Source of the DNA: Candidatus Adlerbacteria bacterium
GTDB lineage: Bacteria > Patescibacteriota > Minisyncoccia > Phycocordibacterales > SBAW01
Assembly: GCA_963749085.1 (NCBI GenBank)
Contig: CAVVLG010000002.1
Span: 19,178-83,177, forward strand
Length of the DNA stretch: 64,000 nucleotides
Direction: 5' to 3'
A model generated the notes under the pieces. That model worked only from the letters and a program-made list of their open reading frames with translations. It was not told the DNA's origin and made no database searches. Shown here piece after piece: positions 3,061-64,000 of this stretch (position 1 is the stretch's first letter; each line of letters opens with the position of its first letter). The position numbers and the translations under genes were made by a program.

Positions 3061-5751
3061 ATGCCCCCATTCAATCATTTCACCACTAAAGCAAAAGAAG
3101 CCGTGAGGCGTGCGCATGAACTCGCAGTTGAGCGCGGCCAAAACCAGGTAAGCCCGACACACCTTCTCGGGGCACTTTTGCTGCAAGAGGAATCGCTGGT
3201 CACCTCGGTGCTGGAGAAGCTTGAGGTTGATGTCATTTTGCTTACCGATACCGTGCTCGAAGCGCTCGAAGGCACCCCAGGAGGATCGGTTCTTTCTCCA
3301 TCCTACCAGCTGTATTTGACTCCCGAGCTGGTACAGGCGCTTGAGCGCAGCGCCAAAGTGGCGACCGAACTTCACGACGAATTCGTCTCAACCGAACATC
3401 TCTTTATTGCCATCCTCGACGTGCAGGGCGCCGCGCGCGATCTTTTGAGTCGTTTCCGCATCACGCGCGAGGCGATATTGCGAGCACTCGGAGAACTGCG
3501 CTCAACCAAAACAGCCGCAGCTACCGAGTCAAAAAAGTTCCGCGCTCTGCCGAAATACACCCGCTCTCTCACCAAAGCAGCGCTTGAGAATAAGCTCGAT
3601 CCGGTCATTGGCCGCGACGAGGAAATTCAACGCGTCATCCAGATACTCAGCCGCCGCACCAAAAATAATCCTATTCTCATTGGCGAAGCCGGCGTGGGGA
3701 AGACCGCCATAGCAGAGGGACTCGCCTCCCGCATCGCCATGGGCGATGTGCCGGAATCGCTTAAAGATAAAGATCTCGTATCGCTTGATCTCGGCGCCTT
3801 GATAGCCGGTACCAAGTACCGCGGCGAATTCGAGGAACGCCTCAAGGCCATCATGAAGGAGATAGAACGATCCGACGGCAAGATCCTTCTTTTTATCGAC
3901 GAGATTCATACCATGATAGGCGCCGGCGCTGCGGAGGGCGCCATGGACGCAAGCAATATGCTCAAACCGGCTCTGGCGCGCGGCGATCTTCACGTCATAG
4001 GCGCCACGACTCTCAAGGAATATCAAAGGCACATTGAGCGCGACCCGGCGTTCCAACGGCGCTTCCAGCCAGTCTACGTGCTTGAGCCGTCAGTTGAGGA
4101 CGCAGTATCAATTCTGCGCGGTCTCAAAGAGAAATACGAACTGTTCCATGGAGTCCATATCACCGACGACGCTATCGTGTCGGCGGTGCAGTTGAGTGCC
4201 CGTTACATCCCCGACCGATTTTTGCCGGACAAGGCGATAGACCTCATTGACGAAGCCTCTTCTTCTTTGCGCATTTCGCTGGAGAATAAGCCGCCGGTGC
4301 TTGAGGATGCACATCGCAGAATCATGCGTCTTGAAGTCGAGAAGGAAGCTCTCCGCAAAGAGGCACAGGGAGAAGACCGTACCGCTAAGGCGCGCACTAA
4401 GGAGATAGAGCGCGATATAGCAGAGCTTAAGGAAAAAACATCCGAGATTGAGATGCGCTGGAAGAATGAGAAGCAGGTGTTGGGTGATATTAAGTCGATA
4501 AAGAAAGAACTTGAGAGTCTACGGCTCGAGGCCGATTCGGCCGAATCAGCCGTCGATCTGTCCCGCGCGGCTGAAATACGCTACGGAGAAATTCCCTCGC
4601 TTGAACGCGAGTTGGAACAAAAGACCAAGCGACTCAAAAAACTCCAAAGCACCCGCCGCATTCTCAAAGAAGAAATAAACGAGAGTGACATCGCTTCAGT
4701 CGTTTCAAAATGGACGAGTATCCCTGTTTCCCGAATGCTTGAGGAGGAAGCAGAGAAATTGTCCCGCATTGAAGGAGAACTTGAAAAGCGGGTGGTTGGC
4801 CAGCGCGAGGCGGTACAAAAAGTATCCGACGCGGTGAAGCGCAGTCGCGCAGGCATAGCCGATCCCAATCGACCCATTGCCTCCTTTATGTTTCTCGGGC
4901 CAACCGGAGTGGGGAAGACCGAACTCACGCGTGCGCTGGCGGAATTTATGTTTGACGATGAAAAGGCGCTCATACGCGTTGACATGTCGGAATATATGGA
5001 GAAGCACTCCGTCAGCAAAATAATAGGAGCGCCACCTGGCTATGTGGGACACGAAGAGGGCGGGGCATTGACTGAGCTAGTTCGCCACCGCCCGTACGCG
5101 GTGCTTCTCTTCGATGAGATTGAGAAAGCACATCCAGAAGTATTCAACATTCTCCTCCAAGTTCTCGACAATGGATATCTAACCGACGCCAAGGGGCGCA
5201 AGGTAAATTTCCGCAACACGGTTATCATCATGACGAGCAATATCGGCGCGCAATATATCGATAAAATGGAGCAAATAGGATTCTCCGCGCACGGTGGCAC
5301 TGATGCGAGCAACTATATTATGGCTAAAGAGCGTGTGGAACAATCTCTCAAGGACTACTTCAGGCCAGAATTCCTCAACCGTATCGATGAAATAATCATC
5401 TTCAATATTCTCTCGCCCGAGGCCGTCAAAGAAATCGTCGGCATTCAGATCAAAGAAGTGACGGCACGCCTCACGGCAAAAGATATCACACTTACTATCA
5501 TGCCGGCAGTCTATGAGTATCTTTCCAAGGAAGGTTACAATCCACGCTATGGAGCTCGTCCCTTGCGCCGACTGATACAGGATAAAATTCTCACCAAAAT
5601 AGCCAGCCTTATGGTTTCGCGCGGCATACTTCAGGGGGGCAGCGTTATCGTCGATATGCACAAAGGCGAGTTCTCGTTTGATGTTAAAAAAGGAAGGAAA
5701 GGGATGAAAGTCACGCCGAGCGTTGCGGCCGAAGAAAAAGTCGGGGCCTAG
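3061..5751 (+). CDS. clpB: ATP-dependent chaperone ClpB (Clp_N domain, two AAA+ modules, long coiled-coil M domain)
   Basis: Clp N-terminal repeats. Walker A GEAGVGKT and GPTGVGKT. A long coiled-coil middle domain between NBD1 and NBD2. 896 aa. Confidence 0.9.
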
Positions 5752-5882: not shown

Positions 5883-5926
5883 ATCTTGTTATTTAAGGAA
5901 CAACCCAAAAATTGGGTGTTATTATC

Positions 5927-7780
5927 ATGCATATGAAGAGACTTTGGCGCTTCGCTGCGTTGCCTCTTGTGGTTTTTTATTTGTTTACACCACTATTGGC
6001 GTTGGCACAAACTACTCAAGGCGCTGTCTCTATCGTCCCAGTCGTTGAGCCACAGGGCGGTAATGCCTATAGCGGAACCAATGCACCAGTCGTGGCGATT
6101 GGACTTTCCAATACTGGCTTAAACAACGCTCTGATTAATTCAATTGTCCTTGGAGAACAGGGCTCGGCACCCAAGACCATTTTTACCGGATTTTCAATCG
6201 AAACTGCCTCGGGAACTCTTCTCGGTTCCTCTTCAGGTGGTCTTGGTACTGATAGCACGGTGATGGTTCCTGTGTCTTCGACCATTGTAGCAGGCTCGCA
6301 GGAAATATTTGTCGCGTATGCTTCAATCGCGAATAATGTTTCTCCCGCACTTGGAAGCAGTTTTACGTTTTCGGTGGTCGCGGTCAACTCTTCAGCAACA
6401 GTCGCCGGAGCTCTGCCTGTGAGTGGCGGCCAGTACGTCATAACGAGCGGCACGCCACCGCCCACCTGCATCATGAATGTCAATCCGGGGATCATTTCCG
6501 TCGGTGGGGCAATAACCTTAAGCTGGCAGAGTGCTAACGCAACTGGGGGCACTATTACAAGTGTAGGATCAGTCGGTCCTTCGGGATCTATAAATCTACT
6601 ACCATCTTCAGCGTCTTACACGACCTTTGTCGGCACGTTCACTGGGCCATCCGGAGTTACAGTGTCTTGTCAGGCTACAGTCCAAGTTAACAGCTCGAGC
6701 GGCATTATCACAGGTACCACACCGGCCTCAACGCCCGCACCTGCAACACCAGCCGCCTCCACGCCATCGTCTAGTGGTTCCTTGGTGCCTTGTGGGGCCG
6801 GCAACGGTACGCCCGGGAGCGGTGATGTCATAGGAATAAATCAAACCAACTCGACCGGATGCTCGGCTTGCGACTTGGGGTATCTTGTCGAAAATATTAT
6901 TACTCTTCTCATCGGACTCTCCATACCCATTGCCGCCGGCCTCTTCGCTTGGGCCGGTGTACTGTATTTCACCTCAGGCGCAAATCCGGGAAATATCGAA
7001 AAAGCAAAAAGCATATTTAGAAATGCATTGGTCGGTTTCCTTATCGCGATTACTGCGTGGTTGGTCATCAACACACTTCTGCAGACGCTCCTTGCTGGCA
7101 GTCCCACCATTCCGCAGGGCAGCTGGTTCACGATACAGTGTAATAGGAGTGGACGCGCGGTCAGCGGCACTATACAAACTCTCTTAAATTCATTGCCGAT
7201 TGTGAGCACGACTCAACCTGTGGGCACTTCCTATACCTGTCCAAGCAACTATACGCTTCTTGGAGCTGGGAACACATGTATAGATAATACTAATGGAGAC
7301 ATAATAAACGCAACGCCAATAACAAGTGGGAGTGGAGGGCCTGTTACCCAATGCACAAATTCAAATTGCAGTGTATCAAGCTTGCAATCAAATGGAATGA
7401 GTTCGAATGTAGCGAGCGTCATGTCTTGCATTGCCCAGACCGAAAATCCTAGCGGAAGCTTGTGTAATGGCAACGCATGCGGGACATTCCAGATAATGTT
7501 GTCACTCAATCCACTTAGTGGGTCGGCATGTTCACCATATCCAGTGACTAATTGTACTGGTCCCTCACAGTGTAATGCAGTTGGTAGCACAGCACAAAAT
7601 CTAAACTCGGCCGCGTGTCAGACTTGCCTAGCGAGTGAACAAAAAGCTGCGCTTAACCCTCAATGCAATGCACAATCGGCGAATGCTCTTGTCCAGCAGT
7701 CTGGTTATAGCTCCTGGACTTGCCCCGGTTGTAATTCGAATGCTCAAGCATGTGTAAGCACATACGGCTCCAGTAATTGA
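5927..7780 (+). CDS. Large secreted/membrane protein: signal peptide, Ig-like repeats, a VirB2/TrbC-pilin-like hydrophobic hairpin, and a 17-Cys C-terminal domain
   Basis: Signal peptide MHMKRLWRFAALPLVVFYLFTPLLALAQT. Two hydrophobic helices, IAAGLFAWAGVLYF and FLIAITAWLVINTLL, separated by GANPGNIEKAKS. 17 Cys in the last ~215 aa. The start may be the TTG at 5912 or the ATG at 5927/5933. Confidence 0.6.
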   Translation: MHMKRLWRFAALPLVVFYLFTPLLALAQTTQGAVSIVPVVEPQGGNAYSGTNAPVVAIGLSNTGLNNALINSIVLGEQGSAPKTIFTGFSIETASGTLLGSSSGGLGTDSTVMVPVSSTIVAGSQEIFVAYASIANNVSPALGSSFTFSVVAVNSSATVAGALPVSGGQYVITSGTPPPTCIMNVNPGIISVGGAITLSWQSANATGGTITSVGSVGPSGSINLLPSSASYTTFVGTFTGPSGVTVSCQATVQVNSSSGIITGTTPASTPAPATPAASTPSSSGSLVPCGAGNGTPGSGDVIGINQTNSTGCSACDLGYLVENIITLLIGLSIPIAAGLFAWAGVLYFTSGANPGNIEKAKSIFRNALVGFLIAITAWLVINTLLQTLLAGSPTIPQGSWFTIQCNRSGRAVSGTIQTLLNSLPIVSTTQPVGTSYTCPSNYTLLGAGNTCIDNTNGDIINATPITSGSGGPVTQCTNSNCSVSSLQSNGMSSNVASVMSCIAQTENPSGSLCNGNACGTFQIMLSLNPLSGSACSPYPVTNCTGPSQCNAVGSTAQNLNSAACQTCLASEQKAALNPQCNAQSANALVQQSGYSSWTCPGCNSNAQACVSTYGSSN

Positions 7781-10007: not shown

Positions 10008-10448
10008 TCAAAAATAATGTTTGAGTAATAGCATGATGCACGCGAGCTTCACGAAGGCGGCAAAGTTCTGCAGTTTGTATTCGTAGCGAGTCACGAGCTT
10101 TCTCCAGTTGTGCATCCACGCGAACAGCCGCTCAATCTTCCACCGGCGCTTGTAGGAGCGCAGCGCCCTGCCGTCCTGTGTTGCTCTGCGCACCCGGCCT
10201 CTGCGATGCGGTGAAATGAGTTTGATGCGGTATTTGTTCAGGAGCGTTCCATCCAGCGGATCGGAATCATATGCTCGGTCAGCCGTGAGGCGAAGCGGAT
10301 TCTGTCGGGTAAATCGCCGGGCAAGCGTGTCTTCAACCAACCGGACTTCGCTCGGAGAAGCAGAGGCCACATAGACGGCGACTGGAAGAGAGCCTTCGTC
10401 CGCAATCGCCATGATCTTGGTGCCTTTCCCACGCTTCGTGGGTCCCAC
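10008..10448 (-). CDS. IS5-family transposase, C-terminal DDE ORF. It is in a different frame from the upstream ORF, implying programmed ribosomal frameshifting or a pseudogene.
   Basis: ...RAYDSDPLDGTLLNKYRIKLISPHRRGRVRRATQDGRALRSYKRRWKIERLFAWMHNWRKLVTRYE is the DDE_Tnp_1 C-terminal signature. It overlaps the N-terminal ORF by ~210 nt. Its stop codon lies in the terminal inverted repeat. Confidence 0.75.
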   Translation of the reverse strand: MGPTKRGKGTKIMAIADEGSLPVAVYVASASPSEVRLVEDTLARRFTRQNPLRLTADRAYDSDPLDGTLLNKYRIKLISPHRRGRVRRATQDGRALRSYKRRWKIERLFAWMHNWRKLVTRYEYKLQNFAAFVKLACIMLLLKHYF

Positions 10449-10780
10449 GCCAAGACCCCCTTTTTTGCCCCCGCGAAGGTGGCATCGAGAAAGCAGCTCC
10501 TGAGCTTGATGCGCCCCCGGTATTCCATGTCCATGGCCAGGGCTTCGACGATGCGGTCAAAGGCGCCGCTCTCCACCCACTGCTGGAACCTGCGATGGCA
10601 GGTCTGGTAGGGCGGGTAGTCTTTCGGCAGGTGCTTCCACTGGGCGCCGGTCTTCAGTGCCCAGAGGATACCTTCCAGTATCTTGCGGTCGTCCTGCCGG
10701 GGACGGCCGCGGGTTTCCAAACGCTTGAGGGGTGTGACAAACGGAGCGATGACGCTCCACTGCTCGTTGGTGAGAGGCAT
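10238..10780 (-). CDS. IS5-family transposase, N-terminal ORF (HTH / DUF4096-like)
   Basis: MPLTNEQWSVIAPF...ILWALKTGAQWKHLPKDYPPYQTCHRRFQQWVESGAFD is the typical IS427/IS1031-group OrfA. Confidence 0.8.
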   Translation of the reverse strand: MPLTNEQWSVIAPFVTPLKRLETRGRPRQDDRKILEGILWALKTGAQWKHLPKDYPPYQTCHRRFQQWVESGAFDRIVEALAMDMEYRGRIKLRSCFLDATFAGAKKGVLAWDPRSVGKAPRSWRLRTKALFQSPSMWPLLLRAKSGWLKTRLPGDLPDRIRFASRLTEHMIPIRWMERS

Positions 10781-52811: not shown

Positions 52812-53156
52812 ATGTCTGAATTGGCAGATAAAAAATGCGTACCATGCGAGGGAAATGTCCCGCCACTTACTCCTGATAAAGCACAGGAGATGATGAAGGA
52901 ACTTCACGATTGGTCCCTTATTGATGACGCGCATTTGCTCGCGAAAAGTTTCCGCTTTAAGGATTTTGTCGAGACGATGGAATTCGTCAACAAGATTGCG
53001 GCTATAGCCGAGGAGGAGCAACATCACCCCGATCTTACGGTTACGTACGGAGCGGTCACTGTTGAACTCATGACGCACGCCATAGGTGGACTTTCGGAAA
53101 ATGATTTTATTGTTGCGGCAAAGATAGATAGACAGGATGCAATGAGGTCGATATAA
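52812..53156 (+). CDS. phhB: 4a-hydroxytetrahydrobiopterin dehydratase (pterin-4-alpha-carbinolamine dehydratase)
   Basis: ...KAQEMMKELHDWSL....FRFKDFVETMEFVNKIAAIAEEEQHHPDLTVTYGAVTVELMTHA. Confidence 0.85.
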   Translation: MSELADKKCVPCEGNVPPLTPDKAQEMMKELHDWSLIDDAHLLAKSFRFKDFVETMEFVNKIAAIAEEEQHHPDLTVTYGAVTVELMTHAIGGLSENDFIVAAKIDRQDAMRSI

Positions 53157-53305
53157 AAAAAGACCGGCCGAGAATAAACCCAGCCGGCCAGAAAAATAGC
53201 TACGGCTATAAGAATCAGCGCGGCGAACGTCAGTAAAAAACTACGCCCGTTCGCTTTTGGATCCCAAAGCCGTTCATGAGGCGACAATTCTGTAGAGGTA
53301 CTCAT
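53024..53305 (-). CDS. Candidate small single-TM membrane protein; its 3' end overlaps phhB antisense, so low confidence
   Basis: Good RBS GTGAAGGAATGTGCT-ATG. MSTSTELSPHERLWDPKANGRSFLLTFAALILIAVAIFLAGWVYS is a TM helix. The reading frame continues ~130 nt into the opposite-strand phhB, which is unusual. Confidence 0.3.
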   Translation of the reverse strand: MSTSTELSPHERLWDPKANGRSFLLTFAALILIAVAIFLAGWVYSRPVFFYIDLIASCLSIFAATIKSFSESPPMACVMSSTVTAPYVTVRSG

Positions 53306-53488
53306 AGCACATTCCTTCACATGTTGTGCCCTCAAACCGCCGGGTATTGATTCTATAGAGCGTGTCTGAAGTATCAATTAACAATTTTGTTGATTACCTG
53401 TTGATTCTATGGGGATGAATTGTGAATTACCCTTTTATGCCTTAGAGAAGTGGATATTTTGTGGATATTGACGTAGGATAAAAATCAA

Positions 53489-53564
53489 GGGCCCGTAGCT
53501 TAGTTGGTAGAGCGCCTCATTTGCAATGAGGAGGTCAGGAGTTCGAATCTCCTCGGGTCCACCA
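53489..53564 (+). tRNA. tRNA-Ala (anticodon TGC), G3:U70, CCA encoded
   Basis: GGGCCCG...CCTCA-TTTGCAA-TGAGG...AGGAGTTCGAATCTCCT-CGGGTCC-A-CCA. Confidence 0.85.
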
Positions 53565-53576
53565 TAGTTATTTGTA

Positions 53577-53604
53577 TTGCAATCACACACAAAAAATTTA
53601 TACT
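53577..53604 (+). promoter_or_regulatory. Sigma-70-type promoter candidate (TTGCAA, 16 nt, TATACT) directly after tRNA-Ala(TGC), driving the 157-aa ORF
   Basis: Hexamers read directly from the sequence. An RBS AGGAA lies 8 nt before the ATG at 53663. Confidence 0.4.
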
Positions 53605-53662
53605 GTTCATAGACTTGTTATCTCGTCGCGCTTGACAGCGCATAACCTAGAGGAATGAACCT

Positions 53663-54136
53663 ATGGCCCTTCACGCTGATGTACGTTTACGGAGAAGCGA
53701 AGAAACTATACAGTTTCCTATGTCAAATGGGAAACCAATGGACTCAATTCGCGGGCGAAAGCCTCTGCCCTTGGTGATAAGTGGCAAGGCAGGAGGAATT
53801 ACCATTCTCTACAGTTTTAATCGCTGCGGGGGACCCATCCTTGGGGAAGAGGCGAAGCAAAATGTAGAAAAGGCATTTACTGAATCCAGAGTAAATGTCA
53901 TGAAACTTACTTTTGCTCGTTACAGCGACGACACTATTAACTGTACCGCGGACCTCGCTGAATCTCACGCTGGGCTAGGGACATACCGAGTTCCACTCTT
54001 CGTGCGGGGCGATATCACCATGTGTTTCGAATCGACCGATAACACTGGGCTTGCGTTCAACCTCGTTTATTGTCTTTGGAAAGTTTTCAAGCCCAAAAAC
54101 TATGTTCTCGATGCAAGTTTTTGGCAAAGTCGTTGA
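53663..54136 (+). CDS. Hypothetical protein (orphan; island cargo)
   Basis: ORF with an RBS, followed by a strong terminator. No recognisable motifs. Confidence 0.45.
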   Translation: MALHADVRLRRSEETIQFPMSNGKPMDSIRGRKPLPLVISGKAGGITILYSFNRCGGPILGEEAKQNVEKAFTESRVNVMKLTFARYSDDTINCTADLAESHAGLGTYRVPLFVRGDITMCFESTDNTGLAFNLVYCLWKVFKPKNYVLDASFWQSR

Positions 54137-54141
54137 AGCTC

Positions 54142-54172
54142 GCGTCGGTCTAAAGACCGACGCTTTCTTTTT
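54142..54172 (+). terminator. Rho-independent terminator
   Basis: GCGTCGGTC-TAAA-GACCGACGC hairpin followed by TTTCTTTTT. Confidence 0.7.
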
Positions 54173-54202
54173 ATATCAATCTCCTATACAGTTTTTCCTA
54201 AC

Positions 54203-54276
54203 GCACCCTTAGCTCAGTTGGCTAGAGCGCACCCTTCACACGGGTGAGGTCGCAGGTTCGAGTCCTGCAGGGTGCA
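54203..54276 (+). tRNA. tRNA-Val (anticodon CAC), no encoded CCA
   Basis: GCACCCT-TA-GCTC-AGTTGGCTA-GAGC-G-CACCC-TTCACAC-GGGTG-AGGTC-GCAGG-TTCGAGT-CCTGC-AGGGTGC-A. Confidence 0.8.
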
Positions 54277-54328
54277 CCTCTATATTTAATTTATTCAAGA
54301 TTTTCATTTGTACGTATGATTATTTATA

Positions 54329-55054
54329 ATGGACTTCAAAACGGCTGTCGATTTGTTAAATAGGGCTCTTATGAAAAGGCAGCCCGAGCATTTCAGTAGC
54401 TCCTGGATTTTCAAGCACACGCCATGCGCATATCATTATTTTCGACTCAACGTCAGGGCAGTAACCGGCGAGATTGATTGGGATACCATCACCACAGAGT
54501 TGGATCGGCCATTTCAAAAACGATGGACACGACGCCGGCGAAAGCGCCGAGAATTGCTTAAGCTCTACAGAAGCAAGCCTGAAGTCCAAGCGATTTTCAA
54601 GAAGTACAAAAATCAGCAATATGTATTCCTCAGCGCCAAGACACCCGAGGAATGGCGTGCGAGAGATCGTATCAGTATTGCACTCATGCGTGTCGCTCAG
54701 AAAGGCAATATCACTGCACAAAAAGAATTAATCGATCTCCTTATCTACACCGTTCAAAACTGGACTGAGCGGTACCCGTACTTTTATAGATGGAAGCACT
54801 ATAGTGATTTGCTACCCGACCATATTGAGACCTGCATGCGACGATATCATTTCACCGGCTCGTTCATTCAGTATCTGTACATATCTTTGATGTACTCAGC
54901 CCGAGCGCTCAAACGCATCCAAGTGTATTCTCTCGACAAGCCAATTTATGACGATGACGAAATAACATTAGCTGAACGCGTGGTTCAAGATCCGACTACC
55001 GGTGAGATAAAGATATACGAAGCCGGTCACTTAAGCGACTATCAAAATCTCTAA
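54329..55054 (+). CDS. Hypothetical protein (orphan; island cargo)
   Basis: 241-aa ORF with a basic stretch RWTRRRRKRRELLKLY. No recognisable domain. Confidence 0.45.
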   Translation: MDFKTAVDLLNRALMKRQPEHFSSSWIFKHTPCAYHYFRLNVRAVTGEIDWDTITTELDRPFQKRWTRRRRKRRELLKLYRSKPEVQAIFKKYKNQQYVFLSAKTPEEWRARDRISIALMRVAQKGNITAQKELIDLLIYTVQNWTERYPYFYRWKHYSDLLPDHIETCMRRYHFTGSFIQYLYISLMYSARALKRIQVYSLDKPIYDDDEITLAERVVQDPTTGEIKIYEAGHLSDYQNL

Positions 55055-55130
55055 AAAAAGTTGAGCAAGCGCTCGACCCTTTTGTCTTTTGTTGTTATAT
55101 TTTTGGGGTCGAAAGCTGTGCGGGGCGTCT

Positions 55131-55191
55131 TATAGTGGCATTATACACGCTTCGGGTGCGTGAAACCCGAGTTCGATTCTCGGCGCCCCGA
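55131..55191 (+). tRNA. tRNA-Pro (anticodon CGG), atypical D region (short D-loop, no nucleotide 26), no CCA
   Basis: Acceptor CGGGGCG/CGCCCCG is a perfect 7-bp stem. Anticodon stem CACGC/GCGTG with loop TTCGGGT. T-arm CCGAG-TTCGATT-CTCGG. 61 nt to the discriminator A; D-arm pairing is non-canonical. Confidence 0.55.
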
Positions 55192-55206
55192 CAGGGTTTT
55201 CGACAG

Positions 55207-55277
55207 GGGCTCATAGTAAAGTGGTATTACGCGGCATTCGCATTGCCGAGGCCCGGGTCCGATTCCCGGTGAGTCCA
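55207..55277 (+). tRNA. tRNA-Ala (anticodon CGC), G3:U70, 7-nt D-loop, no CCA
   Basis: GGGCTCA-TA-GTAA-AGTGGTA-TTAC-G-CGGCA-TTCGCAT-TGCCG-AGGC-CCGGG-TCCGATT-CCCGG-TGAGTCC-A. The G3:U70 Ala identity pair is present. Confidence 0.65.
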
Positions 55278-55282
55278 CAAAT

Positions 55283-55311
55283 TTGACAGACATATAAAAT
55301 ATGTGATACAC
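55283..55311 (+). promoter_or_regulatory. Cassette promoter copy A: perfect -35 TTGACA, 16 nt, TG-extended -10 GATACA. It begins the conserved ~70-nt leader that ends in RBS GGGAGG
   Basis: TTGACAGACATATAAAATATGTGATACA read directly. The same module recurs at 55993, 56574 and 63775. Confidence 0.45.
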
Positions 55312-55378
55312 AAATAAAAGACATCGGACTTAGTAATCCGCTCGTTCTCACCATTCTAACGCGCCAAGGGAGGCGGCA

Positions 55379-55696
55379 ATGGCACTATCCTTCGCACTGA
55401 GTATCTATTTCACAGTCGGTCTTCTCTTTTCGGTTGGATTCTGGACGGTCATCATAAAGGCTTACGCTTGTGAAAGAAGCGAGGGGACACTCCATGCAAT
55501 ACAAGAAGAATTGAATACGCAATCTGCCTACCTCGACACTTTGTTGCAAGTGTATCCAGCCCTTATCCTACTGCTTGCGGTATTTACTGCCATCATCTGG
55601 CCTATACCATTGATGATAATACTGCTCAGCGTAGTAAAGGGACTTATAAGTGGACTTCGGACAGGCATTCGAGCACTTCTGGCAAGGAGACGCTGA
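55379..55696 (+). CDS. Cassette ORF 1: small two-TM membrane protein (105 aa)
   Basis: RBS GGGAGGCGGCA-ATG. Two hydrophobic helices. Followed by a terminator. Confidence 0.5.
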   Translation: MALSFALSIYFTVGLLFSVGFWTVIIKAYACERSEGTLHAIQEELNTQSAYLDTLLQVYPALILLLAVFTAIIWPIPLMIILLSVVKGLISGLRTGIRALLARRR

Positions 55697-55706
55697 AGAA
55701 TTTAAC

Positions 55707-55740
55707 AGCCGTCGCTGAAATATGGGGCGGCTTTTTCTTT
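55707..55740 (+). terminator. Intrinsic terminator of cassette 1
   Basis: AGCCGTC...GGCGGCT stem followed by TTTTTCTTT. Confidence 0.5.
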
Positions 55741-55997
55741 ATAACGCCACTTAATCCAATACCCACTCTGTGCCTCTTACACCAATTATCCGCTAAACCC
55801 CTTCAAGAGCTTTCTGTAACACCGGACTGCTCTGGTAGTACCCCAAAAACCGAGAAAGATACTGTTTTAACCTGTTCGAGGTATACTCCCCACGGTGGGG
55901 TAGGACACCAAACTCTCCAATTCCCGAATACTCGCTCGTATCTCCTCCTTCCACCCCAAAAGTTCTGAAAGCCACCCTATTTGCCCACAAATTTGAC
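55735..55997 (+). repeat. Cassette 3' module copy 1 (conserved core, a ~120-bp extra segment, and the tRNA-3'-end-like junction ...GCCCACAAATTTGACA)
   Basis: ACTTAATCCAATACCC...GGACTGCTCTGGTAGTACCCC-AAAAACCGAGAAAGATA is shared with the copies at 56405 and 57165. Confidence 0.6.
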
Positions 55998-56021
55998 AGA
56001 TATTTCAATATATGGTAAATA
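55993..56021 (+). promoter_or_regulatory. Cassette promoter copy B (TTGACA, 17 nt, TGgTAAATA)
   Basis: Diverged copy of the promoter/leader. A leader hairpin ACGGATT-TAG-TAATCCGT follows. Confidence 0.4.
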
Positions 56022-56085
56022 AATAACAGTTACGGATTTAGTAATCCGTTCGTTCCATCAATTCTAACCCGCATGGGAGGACATC

Positions 56086-56373
56086 GTGCAAGAGAATAAG
56101 TCGATAATTTCCCAGACTCGGGGAGTGCAGCTGTTGGGTTGGACAGGCTCTGTACTCGCGCTGAGCATGTATCTAAGCTTTATTGACCAGATTCAGCTGA
56201 ACATCGCCGGTCATAAAGGCTCATGGATTATCCCACTCATCGGTACACTCAGTTGTAGTGTCTGGACAGCTTATGCGTGGTTGTTAAAGCCCCGCAACTG
56301 GCCGCTTATCGTATGTAATGTGCCAATGGTCATCCTTGGGCCTATGACCGTATTAACTACCTTCTTCTGGTAG
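56086..56373 (+). CDS. Cassette ORF 2: small polytopic membrane protein (95 aa, GTG start)
   Basis: RBS GGGAGGACATC-GTG. Three hydrophobic segments. A terminator follows directly. Confidence 0.45.
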   Translation: MQENKSIISQTRGVQLLGWTGSVLALSMYLSFIDQIQLNIAGHKGSWIIPLIGTLSCSVWTAYAWLLKPRNWPLIVCNVPMVILGPMTVLTTFFW

Positions 56374-56379
56374 CACAAC

Positions 56380-56407
56380 CCCCGGCAGCGATGCCGGGGC
56401 TTTCTTT
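56380..56407 (+). terminator. Intrinsic terminator of cassette 2
   Basis: CCCCGGCA-GCGA-TGCCGGGG hairpin followed by CTTTCTTT. Confidence 0.65.
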
Positions 56408-56576
56408 AGGTCTCGTTACTTAATCCAATACCCTCACTGTGTCTCTCCCATAATTCTTCCATCAGGCGCTTTCAAGTGCTTTCTGCAGCGCGGGACTGCT
56501 CTGGTAGTACTCCCAAAACCGAGAAAGATAGGTTTTTAGGGAGTTCAATGTTTTAATGCCTGTGTCCACAAATTTG
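56405..56576 (+). repeat. Cassette 3' module copy 2 (~170 bp, ends GTGTCCACAAATTTGACA)
   Basis: Aligned by eye to copies 1 and 3. The terminal ...GGGAGTTCAATGTTTTAATGCCTGTGTCCA resembles a tRNA T-arm and acceptor 3' end. Confidence 0.6.
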
Positions 56577-56693
56577 ACAGACATATAAAATATGTGATAC
56601 ACAAATAAAAGACATCGGACTTAGTAATCCGCTCGTTCTCACCATTCTAAAGCGCCAAGGGAGGCGGCAATGGCACTATCCTTGCACACTCAT
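56568..56693 (+). repeat. Near-identical (~98%) duplicate of 55272-55397: promoter, leader, RBS and the first five codons ATGGCACTATCCTT
   Basis: Direct comparison shows one mismatch in the leader (CTAACGCG vs CTAAAGCG) and divergence only after codon 5. Confidence 0.8.
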
Positions 56694-57153
56694 CAACGTC
56701 AAAACCGCAACGCCTGAACCGATAGCGGCAATACACGCTTCTATCGCAATGCCACACGTGTATCGCAGACCCGTTTACGTGAATGGACGTCGCTATTTGG
56801 ACGGCACAGGAGGTATACCTTTTCCCGCGCGAGAAGTTATCGAGCGGTGGGGTCTCACCGGACTTGTTGTACTCGCTAATCAACCACGGGATTGGCGACG
56901 CTCCCTAAAACGTAAGCTACTTGAGTTTGGAGCAATCTCACTTCTGCCTAAAGGTCCGCGCAAAACTTCTCGAAAGCGTTTGGAAATATTTGGAGAAAAT
57001 CTGCAGTATCTACGCTCGGGCCGCGTTCCTTACCTGATTGTCTGGACTGACGATGAGGTAGAAATATTCGAGCGTGACCAAACCAAACTACGAGGCACCG
57101 CAGAACGAGCGGGGGAGTTTATGAGCAGTCTACTTGAACGTGCGGGCACTTGA
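56669..57153 (+). pseudogene. Patatin-like phospholipase, C-terminal half only, fused in frame to the duplicated cassette leader (an ATG...TGA mini-ORF, then an in-frame ATG at 56749)
   Basis: ...AAIHASIAMPHVYRRPVYVNGRRYLDGTGGIPFP... matches the patatin ASxAxPxxFxPVxIdGxxYVDGG region containing the catalytic-dyad Asp. The upstream half with GxSxG is absent, and the sequence before it is the shared leader. Confidence 0.5.
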
Positions 57154-57170
57154 GCCCGCACGTTTTCTTT
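57140..57170 (+). terminator. Intrinsic terminator of cassette 3
   Basis: GTGCGGGCACTTGAGCCCGCAC hairpin overlapping the stop codon, followed by GTTTTCTTT. Confidence 0.6.
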
Positions 57171-57337
57171 AGGTCTCGTTACTTAATCCAATACCCTCAC
57201 TGTGTCCCTCCTTAGGTCTCTCTGCTAAGCCCGCTCAAGCGCTTTTTGTAGAGCCGGACTGCTCTGGTAATACTCCCAAAACCGAGAAAGATAGATTTTT
57301 ATGGAGTTCAATGTTTTAATGCCTGTGTCCACAAATT
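57165..57337 (+). repeat. Cassette 3' module copy 3 (ends GTGTCCACAAATTTaaaa; the TTGACA is lost)
   Basis: Aligned to copies 1 and 2. The next ATG, at 57348, lies 17 nt after the junction. Confidence 0.6.
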
Positions 57338-57347
57338 TAAAATTCTT

Positions 57348-57863
57348 ATGACACTCACCACTCACGCATTGGTTGGAGCCGCCGCTGCGAGTCTTTTCTC
57401 ACAGAAACCGGTCCTTGCATTTGCGGCCGGTTTTGTGAGCCATTTTTGTATTGATGCCATTCCACATTGGGATTATCGGCCAGAGTCCATGATCAAGGAT
57501 AAAAATAATAAACTGGCGACGGACATGATACTCGGCAAATCTTTTTTTAAAGATCTGATCTTTATAGGAAGTGATGCGCTACTCGGGCTTGCCCTCAGTG
57601 TCCTTATTTTTAGTCTATGGCTCTTTCACGTGCCTATAGCCATAATTACCTTGGGCGTCATCGCAGCCATACTGCCTGACCCACTGCAATTTATCTACTA
57701 CAAAACTCACTCAAAGCTTTTGGAGCCGCTCCAGAAATTCCACGCGGTGTGGCTGCAGCAAAAAAGTCCCATAAACGTTCCGGCATGGATAGGGCTCGGT
57801 CTGCAAGCCCTGCTCGTAGCGACAGTCGTCGGCATCTTAAAGATAATTCACCCTGTGTTATAA
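57348..57863 (+). CDS. Polytopic membrane protein upstream of atpB (possibly YdjM/DUF457-like metal-dependent membrane hydrolase); function unknown
   Basis: MTLTTHALVGAAAASLF...HFCIDAIPHWDY... His-rich N-terminus followed by about four TM helices. Confidence 0.4.
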   Translation: MTLTTHALVGAAAASLFSQKPVLAFAAGFVSHFCIDAIPHWDYRPESMIKDKNNKLATDMILGKSFFKDLIFIGSDALLGLALSVLIFSLWLFHVPIAIITLGVIAAILPDPLQFIYYKTHSKLLEPLQKFHAVWLQQKSPINVPAWIGLGLQALLVATVVGILKIIHPVL

Positions 57864-57866
57864 TCG

Positions 57867-58622
57867 TTGCATTCTATGAGTGGGGGATTGCAGATATCGC
57901 TTGCGGCGCAGGGTATAACTACGCTATGGGGCATACCCATAACCAACTCGCTTATATCCGTGTGGATAGTCATTGCCATATTGTGCGTCATGGCTTTTTT
58001 TGTGGGAAGAAACGTGCGGATGATTCCGGGCAAAGTCCAAAACCTGTTTGAAATGCTCTTTGAATACGTACTGGGGTATATGGAAAATACGCTGGAAAGT
58101 CCCATGCTCGCGCAGAGGTTTTTTCCGCTTATCATGAGCATTTTTCTCTTTATTTTCGCAGCAAATTTGTTCGAATTTTTGCCGTTCGTCGACAGTATGG
58201 GATTTCAAAGCGCGAGCGGCTTCACGCCGCTCCTGCGCCCGGCTACGACGGATCTCAACGTGACGCTCGCGCTTGCCATCATTTCCTTCTTCACCATTGA
58301 AATAACGGGGATTGTCATGCTTGGCATCTGGAAGTACGGCTCAAAATTTGTTAACCTGAAAGGAGGGGTGCTCGGATTTCTCATTGGACTCATTGAGCTT
58401 GTGAGCAACATTACGCGCCTCATTTCCTTCTCGTTCCGGTTGTTCGGCAACATCTTCGCCGGCGGAGTGCTTATCGCGCTTGCGGTCGGATTTCTGCCGT
58501 TGGTCTTACCAGTGCCGCTCATGCTCTTCGAGACGTTCGTGGGACTCGTGCAGGCGGCAATATTCGCACTTCTGACGTTGGCATTCATCAAGATAGCCAT
58601 CACGGAGGCGCACGCACACTAG
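57867..58622 (+). CDS. atpB: F0F1 ATP synthase subunit a
   Basis: ...SFSFRLFGNIFAGGVLIAL... contains the conserved Arg-helix motif. Confidence 0.85.
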   Translation: MHSMSGGLQISLAAQGITTLWGIPITNSLISVWIVIAILCVMAFFVGRNVRMIPGKVQNLFEMLFEYVLGYMENTLESPMLAQRFFPLIMSIFLFIFAANLFEFLPFVDSMGFQSASGFTPLLRPATTDLNVTLALAIISFFTIEITGIVMLGIWKYGSKFVNLKGGVLGFLIGLIELVSNITRLISFSFRLFGNIFAGGVLIALAVGFLPLVLPVPLMLFETFVGLVQAAIFALLTLAFIKIAITEAHAH

Positions 58623-58877
<255 letters not shown>

Positions 58878-58889
58878 ACTTTCTTTCTC

Positions 58890-59336
58890 ATGGCGCAAGT
58901 GCTTGGCATATTCGGCATCGACTGGCGACTTCTCGTCATCAACACGATTAATTTCGCATTGGTGCTTTTAGTGTTGTGGTATTTCCTGTACACGCCCCTT
59001 ATGCGCATGCTCGAAGCGCGCCGGCAGAAGGTAATTAAAGGCGTGGAAGACGCCGAGGAGGCCACTCGGAAACTCCACATCACCGAAGGGGAGAAAGCAG
59101 GAATTCTTGCTCGCGCCGGACAGGAAGCCGATGAGGTGCTTCAAAAAGCTCGAGCCGCCGCGGCTGAGAAGGAGCGAGCCATGGTAGCGGCAAGCGAGGT
59201 ACGCGCCGCGGCAGTGTTAAGCGATGCAGAGCGCGAAGCGAAGGAATTGAAGAATCGCGCGATAAAGGAAAGCAAGCAGGAGGTCGCCAAGCTTGTGGTG
59301 CTAGGGATGGATAAGGCGTTCGCGCGACACAAATGA
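58890..59336 (+). CDS. atpF: F0F1 ATP synthase subunit b
   Basis: N-terminal TM helix, then a long charged helix ...RRQKVIKGVEDAEEATRKL.... Confidence 0.75.
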   Translation: MAQVLGIFGIDWRLLVINTINFALVLLVLWYFLYTPLMRMLEARRQKVIKGVEDAEEATRKLHITEGEKAGILARAGQEADEVLQKARAAAAEKERAMVAASEVRAAAVLSDAEREAKELKNRAIKESKQEVAKLVVLGMDKAFARHK

Positions 59337-59587
59337 CCGCCGCTGCCTCCTACGCCCGTGCGCTCTATGAGCTTGCCGAGGAACATCCGCGGTCCGCGCG
59401 CGCGTATCTGAAACACATGCGCGAAGCGCTCAAGCGGCGCGGCCAGAGCAAATTACTGCCTACTATTCTCAGCGAGTATCAAAAACTCCAGACTGCCGCG
59501 GCTCGTCGTACTATGTATGCCACGGTGACGCCCGAGATGGAGCGCACCAGGATACTGCTGGAGCTCTACCGAAAACTGATTTCCTAA
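59333..59587 (+). CDS. atpH: F0F1 ATP synthase subunit delta-like (OSCP N-terminal helical domain only, 84 aa)
   Basis: ASYARALYELAEEH...YLKHMREALKRRG is OSCP N-domain-like. It is translationally coupled between atpF and atpA. Confidence 0.55.
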   Translation: MTAAASYARALYELAEEHPRSARAYLKHMREALKRRGQSKLLPTILSEYQKLQTAAARRTMYATVTPEMERTRILLELYRKLIS

Positions 59588-59588
59588 C

Positions 59589-61148
59589 ATGCCAAACTTC
59601 ATAGAGCAATTTAAAAAAGAAATAGAAGGCTTCACGCCCGAAGCAAGGCCTCTCAACAGCGGGACGGTCATTCGCGTCGGCGACGGCGTCGCCGAGATTG
59701 AAGGTCTTGCGGGAGCCGCCATGTCAGAGATGGTGCGGTTTGATATCGCCTCACGGGAGAAACTCGACACGGCGCTTACGATGCCGGCGGATGTGTTAGG
59801 TGTCATTTTGAATCTCGAAGAAGAGTCGGTGCGCGTCATCATTTTAGGCGACGTTGGTTTGGTGCGCGAGGGCATGACCGTTTCCTCAACCGGCACTATC
59901 CTTTCCATACCCGTGGGGGAGGCGATGCTCGGCCGTGTCGTCTCGGCGCTTGGCGAGCCGCTCGACGGTCTTGGCCCCATTGCCACAACCAAACGAAATC
60001 CCATAGAGCGCGAAGCCTACGGCGTCATGGAACGCCAGTCGGTGAATCAGCCGCTTCATACCGGTATTAAGGCTATCGACTCGATGATCCCCATTGGTCG
60101 CGGCCAGCGCGAACTTATCATCGGCGATCGCTACACGGGAAAAACAACCGTAGGCATCGATACCATTCTCAATCAAAAATCGGAACCGAAGGAAAGCAGG
60201 CCCATATGCATCTACGTCTCGGTGGGGCAGAAGGAGAGCAAAACAGCACGACTTGCCGCGCTCCTCAAGGAGCGAGGCGCCATGGACTACACTATTTTCG
60301 TTGATGCCGGGGCGTCCGCGCCGGCGGCGCTTCAATATCTGGCACCCTTTGCCGGAGCGGCCATTGGAGAATATTTTATGGATCAGGGCCGCGACGCCCT
60401 CATTATTTACGACGATCTTTCCAAGCACGCGGTCGCATACCGGCAACTCTCGCTTCTCCTGCGCCGCCCGCCCGGCCGCGAAGCTTACCCCGGCGATGTG
60501 TTCTATCTCCACTCGCGTCTGCTTGAGCGCGCAGCGAAACTCTCCAAGGAAAAAGGCGCCGGCTCCCTCACCGCGCTCCCCATCATCGAGACGCAGGAGA
60601 ACGACGTCTCCGGCTATATCCCGACCAACGTCATCTCCATAACGGACGGACAGATTTTTTTGGAAACCGATTTGTTTAACAAAGGTATGCGGCCCGCCAT
60701 TAACGCAGGGCTCTCCGTCTCGCGCGTGGGTTCCTCGGCGCAGACGAAGGCCATGAAAAAAGTTTCAGGTCGCATCAAGCTTGAACTCGCGCAGTTCCGC
60801 GAGCTTGAAGCCTTCATGCAATTTTCCCAAGACCTCGACCAGGACACCAAAAACCGCATCGAGTTCGGCGAGCGCATGATGGCGACCCTGAAGCAAAAAA
60901 ACGGCGAACCCATGGCGTTTCAAGAGCAGGCGGTGGTCATTTACGCGGCTATAAACGGCTACCTTGTGAAGGTTGTTGTGGCGCGCGTGCCGGAATACGA
61001 ACAGAAATTTCTTGCCTTTTTAGAGGCGGAAGCGCCGGCGATACTCCAGAGCATTGAACGCTCTCGTGATATGGTCCCACAAACCGAAGCAGAACTGAAA
61101 GTGCAACTCAAGCGATTTGAAGAAACGCATCCAGATCTTTTCACTTAA
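59589..61148 (+). CDS. atpA: F0F1 ATP synthase subunit alpha
   Basis: GDRYTGKTTVGIDTILNQ...ALIIYDDLSKHAVAYRQLSLLLRRPPGREAYPGDVFYLHSRLLERAA. Confidence 0.9.
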   Translation: MPNFIEQFKKEIEGFTPEARPLNSGTVIRVGDGVAEIEGLAGAAMSEMVRFDIASREKLDTALTMPADVLGVILNLEEESVRVIILGDVGLVREGMTVSSTGTILSIPVGEAMLGRVVSALGEPLDGLGPIATTKRNPIEREAYGVMERQSVNQPLHTGIKAIDSMIPIGRGQRELIIGDRYTGKTTVGIDTILNQKSEPKESRPICIYVSVGQKESKTARLAALLKERGAMDYTIFVDAGASAPAALQYLAPFAGAAIGEYFMDQGRDALIIYDDLSKHAVAYRQLSLLLRRPPGREAYPGDVFYLHSRLLERAAKLSKEKGAGSLTALPIIETQENDVSGYIPTNVISITDGQIFLETDLFNKGMRPAINAGLSVSRVGSSAQTKAMKKVSGRIKLELAQFRELEAFMQFSQDLDQDTKNRIEFGERMMATLKQKNGEPMAFQEQAVVIYAAINGYLVKVVVARVPEYEQKFLAFLEAEAPAILQSIERSRDMVPQTEAELKVQLKRFEETHPDLFT

Positions 61149-61151
61149 TCT

Positions 61152-63676
<2,525 letters not shown>

Positions 63677-63698
63677 TATATTCTGTGTGCTAAAAAAC

Positions 63699-63769
63699 GG
63701 GCCCATAGTATAGCGGTAGAACGGTTCCATGGCATGGAACAGGTCGGGGTTCGACTCCCCGTGGGTCCA
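63699..63769 (+). tRNA. tRNA-Ala (anticodon GGC), G3:U70, no CCA
   Basis: GGGCCCA-TA-GTAT-AGCGGTA-GAAC-G-GTTCC-ATGGCAT-GGAAC-AGGTC-GGGGTTCGACTCCCC-GTGGGTCC-A. Confidence 0.75.
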
Positions 63770-63774
63770 CAAAT

Positions 63775-63802
63775 TTGACAAGACCACATATATTTGTATA
63801 CT
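63775..63802 (+). promoter_or_regulatory. Promoter/leader module copy E (TTGACA, 16 nt, TG-extended TATACT) directly after tRNA-Ala(GGC); interrupted 18 bp later by the IS3 copy
   Basis: Same tCCACAAATTTGACA junction as the cassette copies. Confidence 0.45.
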
Positions 63803-63819
63803 GCAAGGCAGTTGCAAAA

Positions 63820-64000
63820 TGGCAGGTACCCCGAAATTTTCTCACCAAGTCGATGAGATTAACCGCTCATTTTTAGTAGAATCGAGGTATGAAGAAAGCA
63901 CATCGCATATCGCAGGAGGTGAAGGATCAGATCCTTGGGCGCATTAGAAACGAAGGGGTGCCGGTCGCGCAAGCGGCCAAAGAGCACGGCCTCCATGAGA
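63820..64000 (+). mobile_element. Second IS3-family element (left end, partial; diverged paralogue of the 9937 copy)
   Basis: Left inverted repeat TGGCAGGTACCCCGAAATTTTCTCACCAAGT, about 90% identical to 9937-9967. OrfA starts at 63889. Confidence 0.7.
63889..64000 (+). CDS. IS3-family transposase OrfA (partial, runs off the window end)
   Basis: MKKAHRISQEVKDQILGRIRNEGVPVAQAAKEHGLHE, compared with MKKGHRVAPEVKEQILGRIKNEGVSIAEAAKEHGITS in copy 1. Confidence 0.75.
   Translation, partial: MKKAHRISQEVKDQILGRIRNEGVPVAQAAKEHGLHE

Follow-up and report, generated by a model that had tools for sequence, protein, structure and literature searches.

Organization of the locus

The window analysed here is a 64,000-nucleotide stretch of contig CAVVLG010000002.1 of Candidatus Adlerbacteria bacterium, and it contains three small gene units lying between an intact tRNA-Ala(CGC) gene and ORF4, the first gene of the atp cluster (Table 1). 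Each unit, here called a cassette, is 581-763 bp long and is built to the same plan: a 5' arm of ~100 nt (P), one open reading frame (ORF), a terminator composed of a hairpin and a T-run, and a 3' arm of ~170-250 nt (M). Together they constitute an insert of 2,054 nt between tRNA-Ala(CGC) and ORF4, extending from the GTCCAC that ends the tRNA gene to the GTCCAC that ends the last M arm. Another tRNA-Ala gene, tRNA-Ala(GGC), is located 8.5 kb farther along.

Table 1. Features of the cassette array and its surroundings, in window coordinates
Feature	Position	Strand	Basis
tRNA-Pro(CGG)	55121-55192		ARAGORN, Rfam
tRNA-Ala(CGC), intact	55207-55278	+	ARAGORN; Rfam 62.3 bits; own covariance model 93.8 bits
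Last six bases of tRNA-Ala(CGC), GTCCAC; left copy of core, attL-type junction of tRNA and P	55273-55278	+	sequence
5' arm P-A	55279-55378	+	sequence; repeat families; nhmmer P profile E=7e-29
Cassette 1 cargo ORF1, 105 aa, hydrophobic; then hairpin and T-run	55379-55696	+	ORF list
3' arm M1, divergent copy	about 55740-55988	+	alignments; nhmmer E=4e-28
Terminal GCCCAC of M1	55983-55988	+	sequence
5' arm P-B; attP-type junction of M1 and P-B	55989-56085	+	repeat families; P profile; identities
Cassette 2 cargo ORF2, 95-aa semiSWEET-like membrane protein	56086-56373	+	Pfam MtN3_slv
Intrinsic terminator after cassette 2 cargo	56380-56409	+	terminator scan
3' arm M2	56400-56569	+	nhmmer E=3e-62
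M2 core, 79-80 nt, GGGACTGCTCTGGTAGTACTCCCAAAACCGAGAAAGATAGGTTTTTAGGGAGTTCAATGTTTTAATGCCTGTGTCCAC	56490-56569	+	alignment
Shared core GTCCAC closing M2	56564-56569	+	sequence
5' arm P-A' and first 14 nt of ORF1; attP-type junction of M2 and P-A'	56570-56683	+	repeat family; base-by-base comparison
Cassette 3 cargo (ORF3), 5'-truncated gene fragment	56684-57153	+	translation
Terminator hairpin after cassette 3 cargo	57140-57170	+	sequence
3' arm M3	57163-57332	+	nhmmer E=5e-60
Terminal GTCCAC of M3 against chromosomal flank AAATTTAAAATTCTT and ATG of first atp-cluster gene; attR-type junction	57327-57332	+	
ORF4, conserved 171-aa membrane protein heading atp operon	57348-57863	+	homologues, synteny
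atpB start	57867	+	
tRNA-Ala(GGC)	63699-63770	+	ARAGORN, Rfam
GTCCAC of tRNA-Ala(GGC), then AAATTTGACA at 63771-63780	63765-63770	+	
IS3-family element, left end, extending past window edge	63820-64000	+	left inverted repeat TGGCAGGTACCCCGAAATTTTCTCACC; orfA from ATG 63889

The P arms share an ordered set of motifs. In P-A these are AAATTTGACA (a perfect -35 hexamer), a spacer of 16-17 nt, a weak, TG-extended -10, the palindrome CGGACTTAGTAATCCG (55325-55340), the Shine-Dalgarno sequence AAGGGAGG and the ATG. P-B is 76.5% identical to P-A and has the same layout (TTGACA, TGGTAAAT, the palindrome ACGGATTTAGTAATCCGT and GGGAGG), and P-A' (56570-56683) is 99% identical to positions 55279-55392, 14 nt of ORF1 included. 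Given its layout and perfect -35 hexamer, the P arm probably acts as a promoter; a simple promoter scan did not list it. The palindrome, CGGAYTTAGTAATCCG, is 16-18 nt long and recurs in the 5' untranslated stretch of all P arms (55325-55340, 56032-56049 and 56616-56631); its P-B copy is perfect, and on the minus strand it is picked up by the terminator scan. Its possible roles include those of an operator, a binding site for a recombinase and an antisense terminator.

The cargo ORFs are mutually unrelated, and for this reason the units appear to have been acquired separately. ORF1 matches no family in Pfam or NCBIfam, and the match of ORF2 to MtN3_slv (E=6.5e-5, 23.3 bits) falls just under the Pfam cutoff of 23.7. 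Cassette 3 is a chimera in which P-A' and the first 14 nt of ORF1 are joined, out of frame, to a gene that has lost its 5' end. The reading frame of that gene is open from the fusion point, its first internal ATG is at 56749, and the start codon provided by P-A' opens an ORF of merely 15 codons (56670-56717). The gene fragment has no match in Pfam, NCBIfam or PDB, although it may be similar to the C-terminal half of a patatin-like protein.

There is no ORF common to the M copies. The core of M3 is 94.9% identical to that of M2, and alignment shows that M1 matches both of them in the 5' part and over the initial 45-60 nt of the core, after which it has ~85 extra nt; the stretch GGGAGTTCAATG... 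is missing from it.

Junction sequences

The two tRNA-Ala genes and the M arms end in similar sequences. The terminus of tRNA-Ala(CGC) is TGAGTCCAC (55270-55278), that of tRNA-Ala(GGC) is TGGGTCCAC (63762-63770), and that of M2 and M3 is TGTGTCCAC. The duplicated tRNA-derived segment is just 6-9 nt, consisting of G(T/C)CCAC at all junctions and extended to TGNGTCCAC in M2 and M3. G(T/C)CCAC followed by AAATTTGACA is seen 3' of tRNA-Ala(CGC), 3' of tRNA-Ala(GGC) and at the cassette junctions. The window as a whole holds four exact copies of CCACAAATTTGACA and one with two mismatches, where 0.45 are expected and five were reached in none of 100 shuffles; two copies lie 3' of tRNA-Ala genes and the others at M ends.

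A preliminary description of this DNA had every M module share one terminus and be followed by one and the same sequence, and both statements need qualification. The common terminus is found in M2 and M3, but M1 ends ...CCCTATTTGCCCAC, with its extra nucleotides and without GGGAGTTCAATGTTTTAATGCC. As to the common downstream sequence, CAAATTTGACA, M3 is an exception, being followed by CAAATTTAAAATTCTT-ATG and not by TTGACA.

Four types of junction can be distinguished, each with G(T/C)CCAC. The attB-like type, in which the tRNA adjoins the chromosomal flank, is seen in three relatives described below (L002, L005 and L092); the attL-like type, tRNA to P, occurs in the window at both tRNA-Ala(CGC) and tRNA-Ala(GGC); the attP-like type, M to P, is represented by M1 with P-B and M2 with P-A'; and the attR-like type, M to flank, by M3 with ORF4 in the window and by M with ORF4 in a further organism (L003). 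Because all four junction types of conservative site-specific recombination share this hexamer, we read M, core and P together as the attachment site of the cassettes.

Empty and occupied sites in related genomes

The preliminary description had pointed to relatives as the place to look for a tRNA-Ala gene directly abutting the atp operon, and such empty sites exist. ORF4 has 400 homologues in Patescibacteria, and in three relatives tRNA-Ala(CGC) is separated from the ORF4 homologue, the first gene of the atp cluster, by only 36 (L002), 23 (L005) or 31 nt (L092). L002 (GCA_028866155.1) has the same gene order as the window, with aminotransferase, Ddl, pterin-4a dehydratase, tRNA-Ala(TGC), tRNA-Val, tRNA-Pro, tRNA-Ala(CGC), ORF4 and atp genes, and its tRNA-Ala(CGC) ends ...GGGTCCAC. 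The empty junction of L005 reads ...GAGTCCAC followed by CGAAAATACTTTTCATTCTGAT-ATG, and that of L092 ...AGGTCCAC followed by TAAAGTC...-ATG. The neighbourhoods of ORF4 in L091, L093 and L094 and the Adlerbacteria loci L006-L009 differ in synteny and tell nothing about the site.

A second, different organism has an M arm at the same place (L003; L001 and L004 are the same 1,966-nt JGI contig, in a second dataset). In L003 the end of a cargo ORF is followed by a terminator and then by M, which ends ...CCTGTGTCCAC and continues directly into AGAAAACTTATACAGTATTC-ATG; the flank after GTCCAC (AGAAAACTTATAC) resembles the flank of the empty site in L005 (CGAAAATACTT). The 46-aa fragment of the L003 cargo has no indexed homologue. 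The ORF4 protein of L003, whose site is occupied, is 63% identical to that of the window, and those of L002 and L005, whose sites are empty, are 69% identical; occupancy thus does not track relatedness.

The M core is exceptionally similar between the two carriers. Over 79 nt, M2 of the window and the L003 copy are identical at 78 positions (98.7%), whereas nucleotide identity is about 73% in the 5' part of M, 63.7% in ORF4, 65.6% in atpB and 75.1% in atpE. Neutral decay is disfavoured because the core is this well conserved while the atp genes are 64-75% identical, and, with the ORFs being unrelated, this tells against an earlier proposal that units of tRNA-Ala, promoter and ORF were amplified in tandem and their tRNA copies then decayed.

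A second occupied site at tRNA-Ala(GGC)

The sequence downstream of tRNA-Ala(GGC) runs past the end of the window and can be followed in a Logan contig (L010) with AtpD and AtpC identical to those of the window. The gene is followed by the same AAATTTGACA and ~40 nt, and then by an insertion sequence (IS) of the IS3 family (63820-64000, continued at 2964-4130 of L010), which has an orfA with an HTH_Tnp_1 domain, an A6G -1 frameshift site and an orfB with an rve domain. It begins ~50 nt downstream of the tRNA gene with the left inverted repeat (IRL) TGGCAGGTACCCCGAAATTTTCTCACC and ends with the right inverted repeat (IRR) ...GGGGTACGTTCCA, the two forming 27-nt imperfect inverted repeats (TGGCAGGTACCCC... 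and TGGAACGTACCCC...). Directly after IRR comes M sequence, from GTCTCTCCC to the end of the contig (nhmmer E=3e-19). The 16-nt GTCCACAAATTTGACA is thus also present at tRNA-Ala(GGC), with an M arm about 1.2 kb downstream, and tRNA-Ala(GGC) is a second occupied site, holding an M-ended unit interrupted by IS3. No target-site duplication flanks the IS3 element, and its position suggests a secondary insertion accompanied by rearrangement of a cassette.

Among 80 related IS3 copies, three are found 30-100 nt downstream of a same-strand tRNA gene (tRNA-Ser(CGA) twice and tRNA-Arg(GCG); L027 2379-2600, L038 2448-2600 and L082 2423-2560), which is commoner than random placement would give. Such positions may be safe intergenic landing sites.

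Probable integration of cassettes at tRNA-Ala genes

We consider it probable, with the reservations given below, that the M modules serve as conserved attachment arms on the right-hand side of tiny integrative gene cassettes, which are non-autonomous and stacked at tRNA-Ala 3' ends. This reading draws on the junction anatomy, the empty sites, the two occupied tRNA-Ala genes, the second organism and the conservation of the M core. In substance it upholds the earlier suggestion of integration at a tRNA-Ala 3' end with duplication of the attachment site, given the empty sites and an insert that runs exactly from GTCCAC to GTCCAC.

A plausible course of events would begin with a circular form of the cassette, in which the end of M abuts the start of P as ...CCTGTGTCCAC followed by AAATTTGACAG..., giving an attP-like site. 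A recombinase supplied in trans, most likely the integrase (tyrosine or large serine type) of a larger element that targets tRNA-Ala and resides elsewhere in the genome or the community, would pair this site with the G(T/C)CCAC found where the discriminator and trailer of a tRNA-Ala gene meet, or with the same core at an existing cassette junction, and strand exchange would take place within or beside the core. The tRNA would be left intact, with P adjoining it and with M and a copy of the core adjoining the old downstream DNA, and repeated rounds would stack cassettes, each with its own expression signals. The internal junctions of M with P carry the sequence expected of attP.

Several observations weigh against integration by such a route. 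Its main weakness is that Pfam finds no tyrosine or serine recombinase among the about 50 ORFs of the window, nor is there one in any cassette. The tRNA-derived repeat is also a major weakness, being so short that microhomology may have sufficed, and so is the small number of carriers, M being known from only two organisms: it is absent from the representative genomes of 185,579 species, one per species, in an exact-pattern scan, from three viral-contig scans and from phage and plasmid collections searched by BLAST; a metagenome scan for M yielded one contig, and nhmmer with M and P over 94 loci returned known copies only. M1 ends in GCCCAC instead of GTCCAC, and the right chromosomal flank in the window itself starts AAATTT, which blurs the crossover point. 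The similarity between P and the sequence 3' of tRNA-Ala(GGC) is limited to the first 10-16 nt and is not significant beyond. Neither an excised circle nor a polymorphic array was observed at the loci compared, and the array is repeat-rich and may be affected by misassembly. Cassette 3 is chimeric and the unit at tRNA-Ala(GGC) contains an IS3 element, such that in this genome the array may be in decay and not active.

An Adlerbacteria contig offers what seems to be a lead to the missing recombinase. In L006 (3215-5160) a large serine recombinase gene (Resolvase, Recombinase and Zn_ribbon_recom domains) abuts a tRNA-Ala(CGC) gene that begins 1 nt after tRNA-Pro and is identical to that of the window at 72 of 72 positions; the reference Adlerbacteria locus (L007, 321-700) lacks a recombinase, and its tRNA-Ala(CGC) differs in sequence. 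An element with a serine integrase thus seems to carry or to target the type of tRNA-Ala found in the window.

The array could also have been assembled with no dedicated recombinase at all, by homologous or microhomology recombination with tRNA-Ala and ORF4 as flanks and then by unequal crossing-over between repeated intergenic modules of promoter or terminator type, M and P having been kept as expression signals. This would fit a shared core of only 6-9 nt and a window in which no recombinase was found; moreover P-A and P-A' are 99% identical, with 14 nt of ORF1 included, and the illegitimate fusion in cassette 3 shows that ordinary recombination has acted within the array. It leaves unexplained, however, why M ends in the tRNA-Ala hexamer exactly at the flank, in two organisms and at two tRNA-Ala genes, and why the terminal 79 nt are near-invariant beside a diverging remainder of M and diverging housekeeping genes. 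A role of M as an expression signal is also at odds with its position downstream of terminators and upstream of P, and with its being dispensable for ORF4 expression in the genomes with empty sites. We therefore regard an origin by general recombination as unlikely.

Nature of the M arm

The strong conservation of the 79-nt core might instead mark M as a small RNA or a cis-regulatory leader, the acceptor-like end being fortuitous and the repeats being copies of a duplicated regulatory unit. A local hairpin, ACTCCCAAAACC...GGTTTT..GGGAGT, can indeed be drawn in M2 and in the L003 copy. It is the sole hairpin of M, though, both substitutions in M3 break it, and it is not significant as either DNA or RNA. 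M matches no Rfam family and folds no better than shuffled sequences on either strand (z = -0.07 and +0.49); a compensatory change is seen in one of 36 predicted pairs, among three near-identical sequences; and M is absent from three relatives with the same downstream operon. An RNA function is thus quite improbable. M is conserved as primary sequence, as expected of a DNA site bound by protein, and the lack of an RNA-like folding signal and the broken hairpin of M3 fit such a site.

Each M carries CTGTGTC(C/T) twice, near the start (CACTGTGTC) and at the end (CCTGTGTCCAC). The copies are at 56437-56445 and 56560-56569 in M2, at 57200-57208 and 57323-57332 in M3, and at 55768-55776 and 55981-55988 in M1, where both read TGCC in place of TGTC; the pairs may be co-varying binding sites. 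The IS3 element of L010 sits exactly at the first copy.

That IS3 element raises the question of whether the cassettes are IS3 derivatives, in the manner of mobile insertion cassettes (MICs) or miniature inverted-repeat transposable elements (MITEs), moved by the transposase encoded near tRNA-Ala(GGC) and with M as the right end of the IS. The element does lie between the AAATTTGACA that follows this tRNA and an M module, and the M core has TGGTAGTAC(T/C)CCCAAAA, similar to the IS inverted repeat TGGCAGGTACCCCGAAA. The IS, however, has matched inverted repeats of its own and M begins only past IRR, the IS repeat and M do not resemble each other significantly (p = 0.08-0.78), and none of the 80 related IS3 copies from Patescibacteria genomes has M. 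The cassettes have neither terminal inverted repeats nor target-site duplications, and the lack of a duplication around the IS itself points to secondary insertion with rearrangement. An IS3 origin, which we rejected on these grounds, is accordingly very unlikely.

Resemblance to tRNA-Ala beyond the junction

The M modules had been described as degenerate tRNA-Ala 3' halves, with ~35 nt paralleling the T-arm and acceptor, a D-arm-like stretch upstream and a CCGAG box matching tRNA-Ala(CGC). Alignment of the modules to the tRNA-Ala genes with shuffle controls gave no significant match past the junction. Without their terminal GTCCA, M2, M3 and the L003 module were over the last 75 nt no more similar to tRNA-Ala genes than dinucleotide shuffles (p 0.35-0.76), and the 30 nt 5' of GTCCA compared with the T-arm and acceptor of the window's own genes gave p = 0.5 (CGC) and 0.18 (GGC); the proposed D-arm-like stretch and CCGAG box are likewise at chance level. 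ARAGORN finds no tRNA in the modules, and the Rfam tRNA model has no match at E<=10 over 55690-57360. We also ran a tRNA-Ala covariance model, built from nine such genes, local and related, over 53000-64000 with filters off. Its hits are the five real tRNAs (44-94 bits) and, beyond these, noise, the one match within a module being a noise-level hit inside M3 (4.8 bits, E=9) that stops short of the module end.

Two weak leads emerged from these comparisons. The sequence GGGAGTTCAAT in M agrees at 10 of 11 positions with the T-arm GGGAGTTCGAT of tRNA-Ala(CGC) in L092 (uncorrected p 0.02-0.06), and was also set against the T-arm of L002; and TCCAATTCCCGAATACTCG in the extra segment of M1 resembles the window tRNA T-arm TCCGATTCCCGGTGAGTCC (p about 0.02-0.03). 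Both were dropped: as the top results of 15 and 44 tests, they fail multiple-testing correction. Because the duplicated tRNA segment is only 6-9 nt, the modules are not degenerate tRNA-Ala 3' halves, and they are not tRNA relics. That they decayed from tRNA-Ala genes or 3' halves, whether through tandem duplication of tRNA-Ala, promoter and ORF or as long tRNA-derived attachment repeats, is hardly credible: the terminal TGNGTCCAC common to modules and tRNA and the two leads are set against the lack of similarity to the window's own tRNA-Ala genes, the failure of the Rfam and tRNA-Ala-specific models, and a cross-species identity of 98.7% that is incompatible with pseudogene decay.

Other features of the region

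ORF4 is conserved as the leading gene of the atp operon in many genomes of the Paceibacteria type. In the window (57333-57866) and in L002, L003, L005 and L006-L009 it has no Shine-Dalgarno sequence and an upstream spacer of 16-36 nt, such that it may be leaderless. In relatives, ORF4 and atpB are separated by a DUF5667 gene on the opposite strand; this gene is missing from the window, where the gap is 3 nt.

The tRNA cluster upstream (Ala-TGC, Val, Pro and Ala-CGC) is a variable hotspot, with apparently unrelated ORFs between the same tRNA genes in relatives. The window has ORFs of 157 and 241 aa there (53565-54202 and 54279-55120) and L002 has ORFs of 175 and 191 aa (3939-5603), and in L005 an insert of ~400 nt (503-911) starts with TTTTGACA directly after tRNA-Val. 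These inserts contain no M or P modules and no obvious tRNA-end repeat. GC content is 44-50% over 53-58 kb of the window and 51-59% in the flanks.

Elsewhere in the window, a 180-aa ORF on the minus strand (10238-10780) matches DUF4096, the N-terminal domain of IS4/IS5-type transposases (E=8e-28), and is probably an IS remnant unrelated to the cassettes. A 622-aa protein encoded on the plus strand (5912-7780) has a type IV secretion system pilin domain (PF18895, E=2e-8).

Comparison with known systems

The genomes of Patescibacteria, or the Candidate Phyla Radiation, are tiny, and little has been described of their mobile DNA and of how they gain genes. Literature searches returned nothing describing such cassettes in this group. 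Like the cassettes of integrons, and of clusters of attC sites without an integrase (CALINs), those described here are small, mostly single-ORF and mutually unrelated units that lie in one orientation, are separated by what look like recombination sites and have no adjacent recombinase. The attC site of integrons is an imperfect palindrome with R''/L''-L'/R' boxes and a GTTRRRY core, and is conserved in structure over sequence. In the window, by contrast, the boundaries read GTCCAC/AAATTT with neither attC palindrome nor GTTRRRY core, and M is conserved in sequence and folds at shuffle level. Nor is there an IntI, attI and Pc platform, which a CALIN does not require: the array is preceded by tRNA-Pro and tRNA-Ala, no integrase is encoded in the window, docking is at a tRNA end and not at attI, and the cassettes are not promoterless.

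It is possible, though doubtful, that some Patescibacteria of the Paceibacteria type possess an undescribed, integron-like mode of gene capture, in which ready-to-express one-gene cassettes of ~0.6-0.8 kb dock at the tRNA-Ala 3' end through a ~280-bp attachment site of M, core and P that doubles as promoter, and are moved by an unlinked recombinase, possibly of new specificity or kind. If so, single accessory genes would be exchanged as promoter-bearing mini-cassettes at tRNA-Ala genes, with small membrane proteins, a semiSWEET-like transporter included, as cargo. The compact attachment site, with its 79-nt invariant arm and 6-nt core, would then provide a handle for finding the recombinase and for mapping strain-level variation.

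As with MICs and MITEs, small passenger units without a transposase are found beside a resident IS. Unlike these, the cassettes lack TG...CA-type terminal inverted repeats and target duplications of 3-5 bp; the ends of the resident IS3 are unrelated to them, and its repeats lie inside the M/P frame. Xer-dependent elements (IMEX) would have a dif-like 28-bp XerC/XerD site at their junctions; the cassette junctions are at tRNA genes and not at a terminus site.

Two features of tRNA-targeting integrative elements are present. Insertion is at the 3' end of an intact tRNA gene, with occupied and empty sites, and a direct repeat of the tRNA 3' end, of only 6-9 nt, is found at the distal and internal junctions; the M modules themselves are neither tRNA genes nor pseudogenes or 3' halves of them, according to ARAGORN, Rfam, our own model and shuffles. 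An encoded integrase is missing from the cassettes and the window, such that they would at most be comparable to cis-mobilizable elements (CIMEs), which are non-autonomous, retain attL and attR at a tRNA 3' end and accrete in tandem by site-specific integration into att, as described in streptococci (PMC5704250). The cassettes resemble CIMEs in being non-autonomous units in tandem at a tRNA 3' end. CIMEs, however, are decayed integrative and conjugative or integrative and mobilizable elements with remnants of transfer or integration genes, whereas the cassettes bear none of these and have the look of purpose-built units of one gene, each with a promoter and a terminator of its own.

Among documented systems the tandem ssrA islands of Dehalococcoides come closest; they are integrated at the ssrA 3' end, each with a 20-bp repeat and with a conserved non-ssrA motif just upstream of it (PMC3146451). 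Sixteen of these have a serine-recombinase integration module and fifteen do not, the latter being proposed to be cis-mobilizable (PMC3146451; McMurdie et al. 2011). In both systems unrelated units lie head to tail after a tRNA-like gene, with 3'-end repeats and an upstream motif that does not align with it, and many units are without integration genes. The islands, though, extend over kilobases to tens of kilobases and have a 20-bp repeat, whereas the cassettes are 581-763 bp with one ORF and a repeat of 6-9 nt, have longer conserved arms (about 170 nt and about 100 nt) and have no recombinase in any unit. The cassettes are best read as a miniature, non-autonomous and integrase-less variant of tandem islands targeted to tRNA or tmRNA genes, set apart by their scale, the short repeat, the long invariant arm and the promoter-like element within the attachment region.

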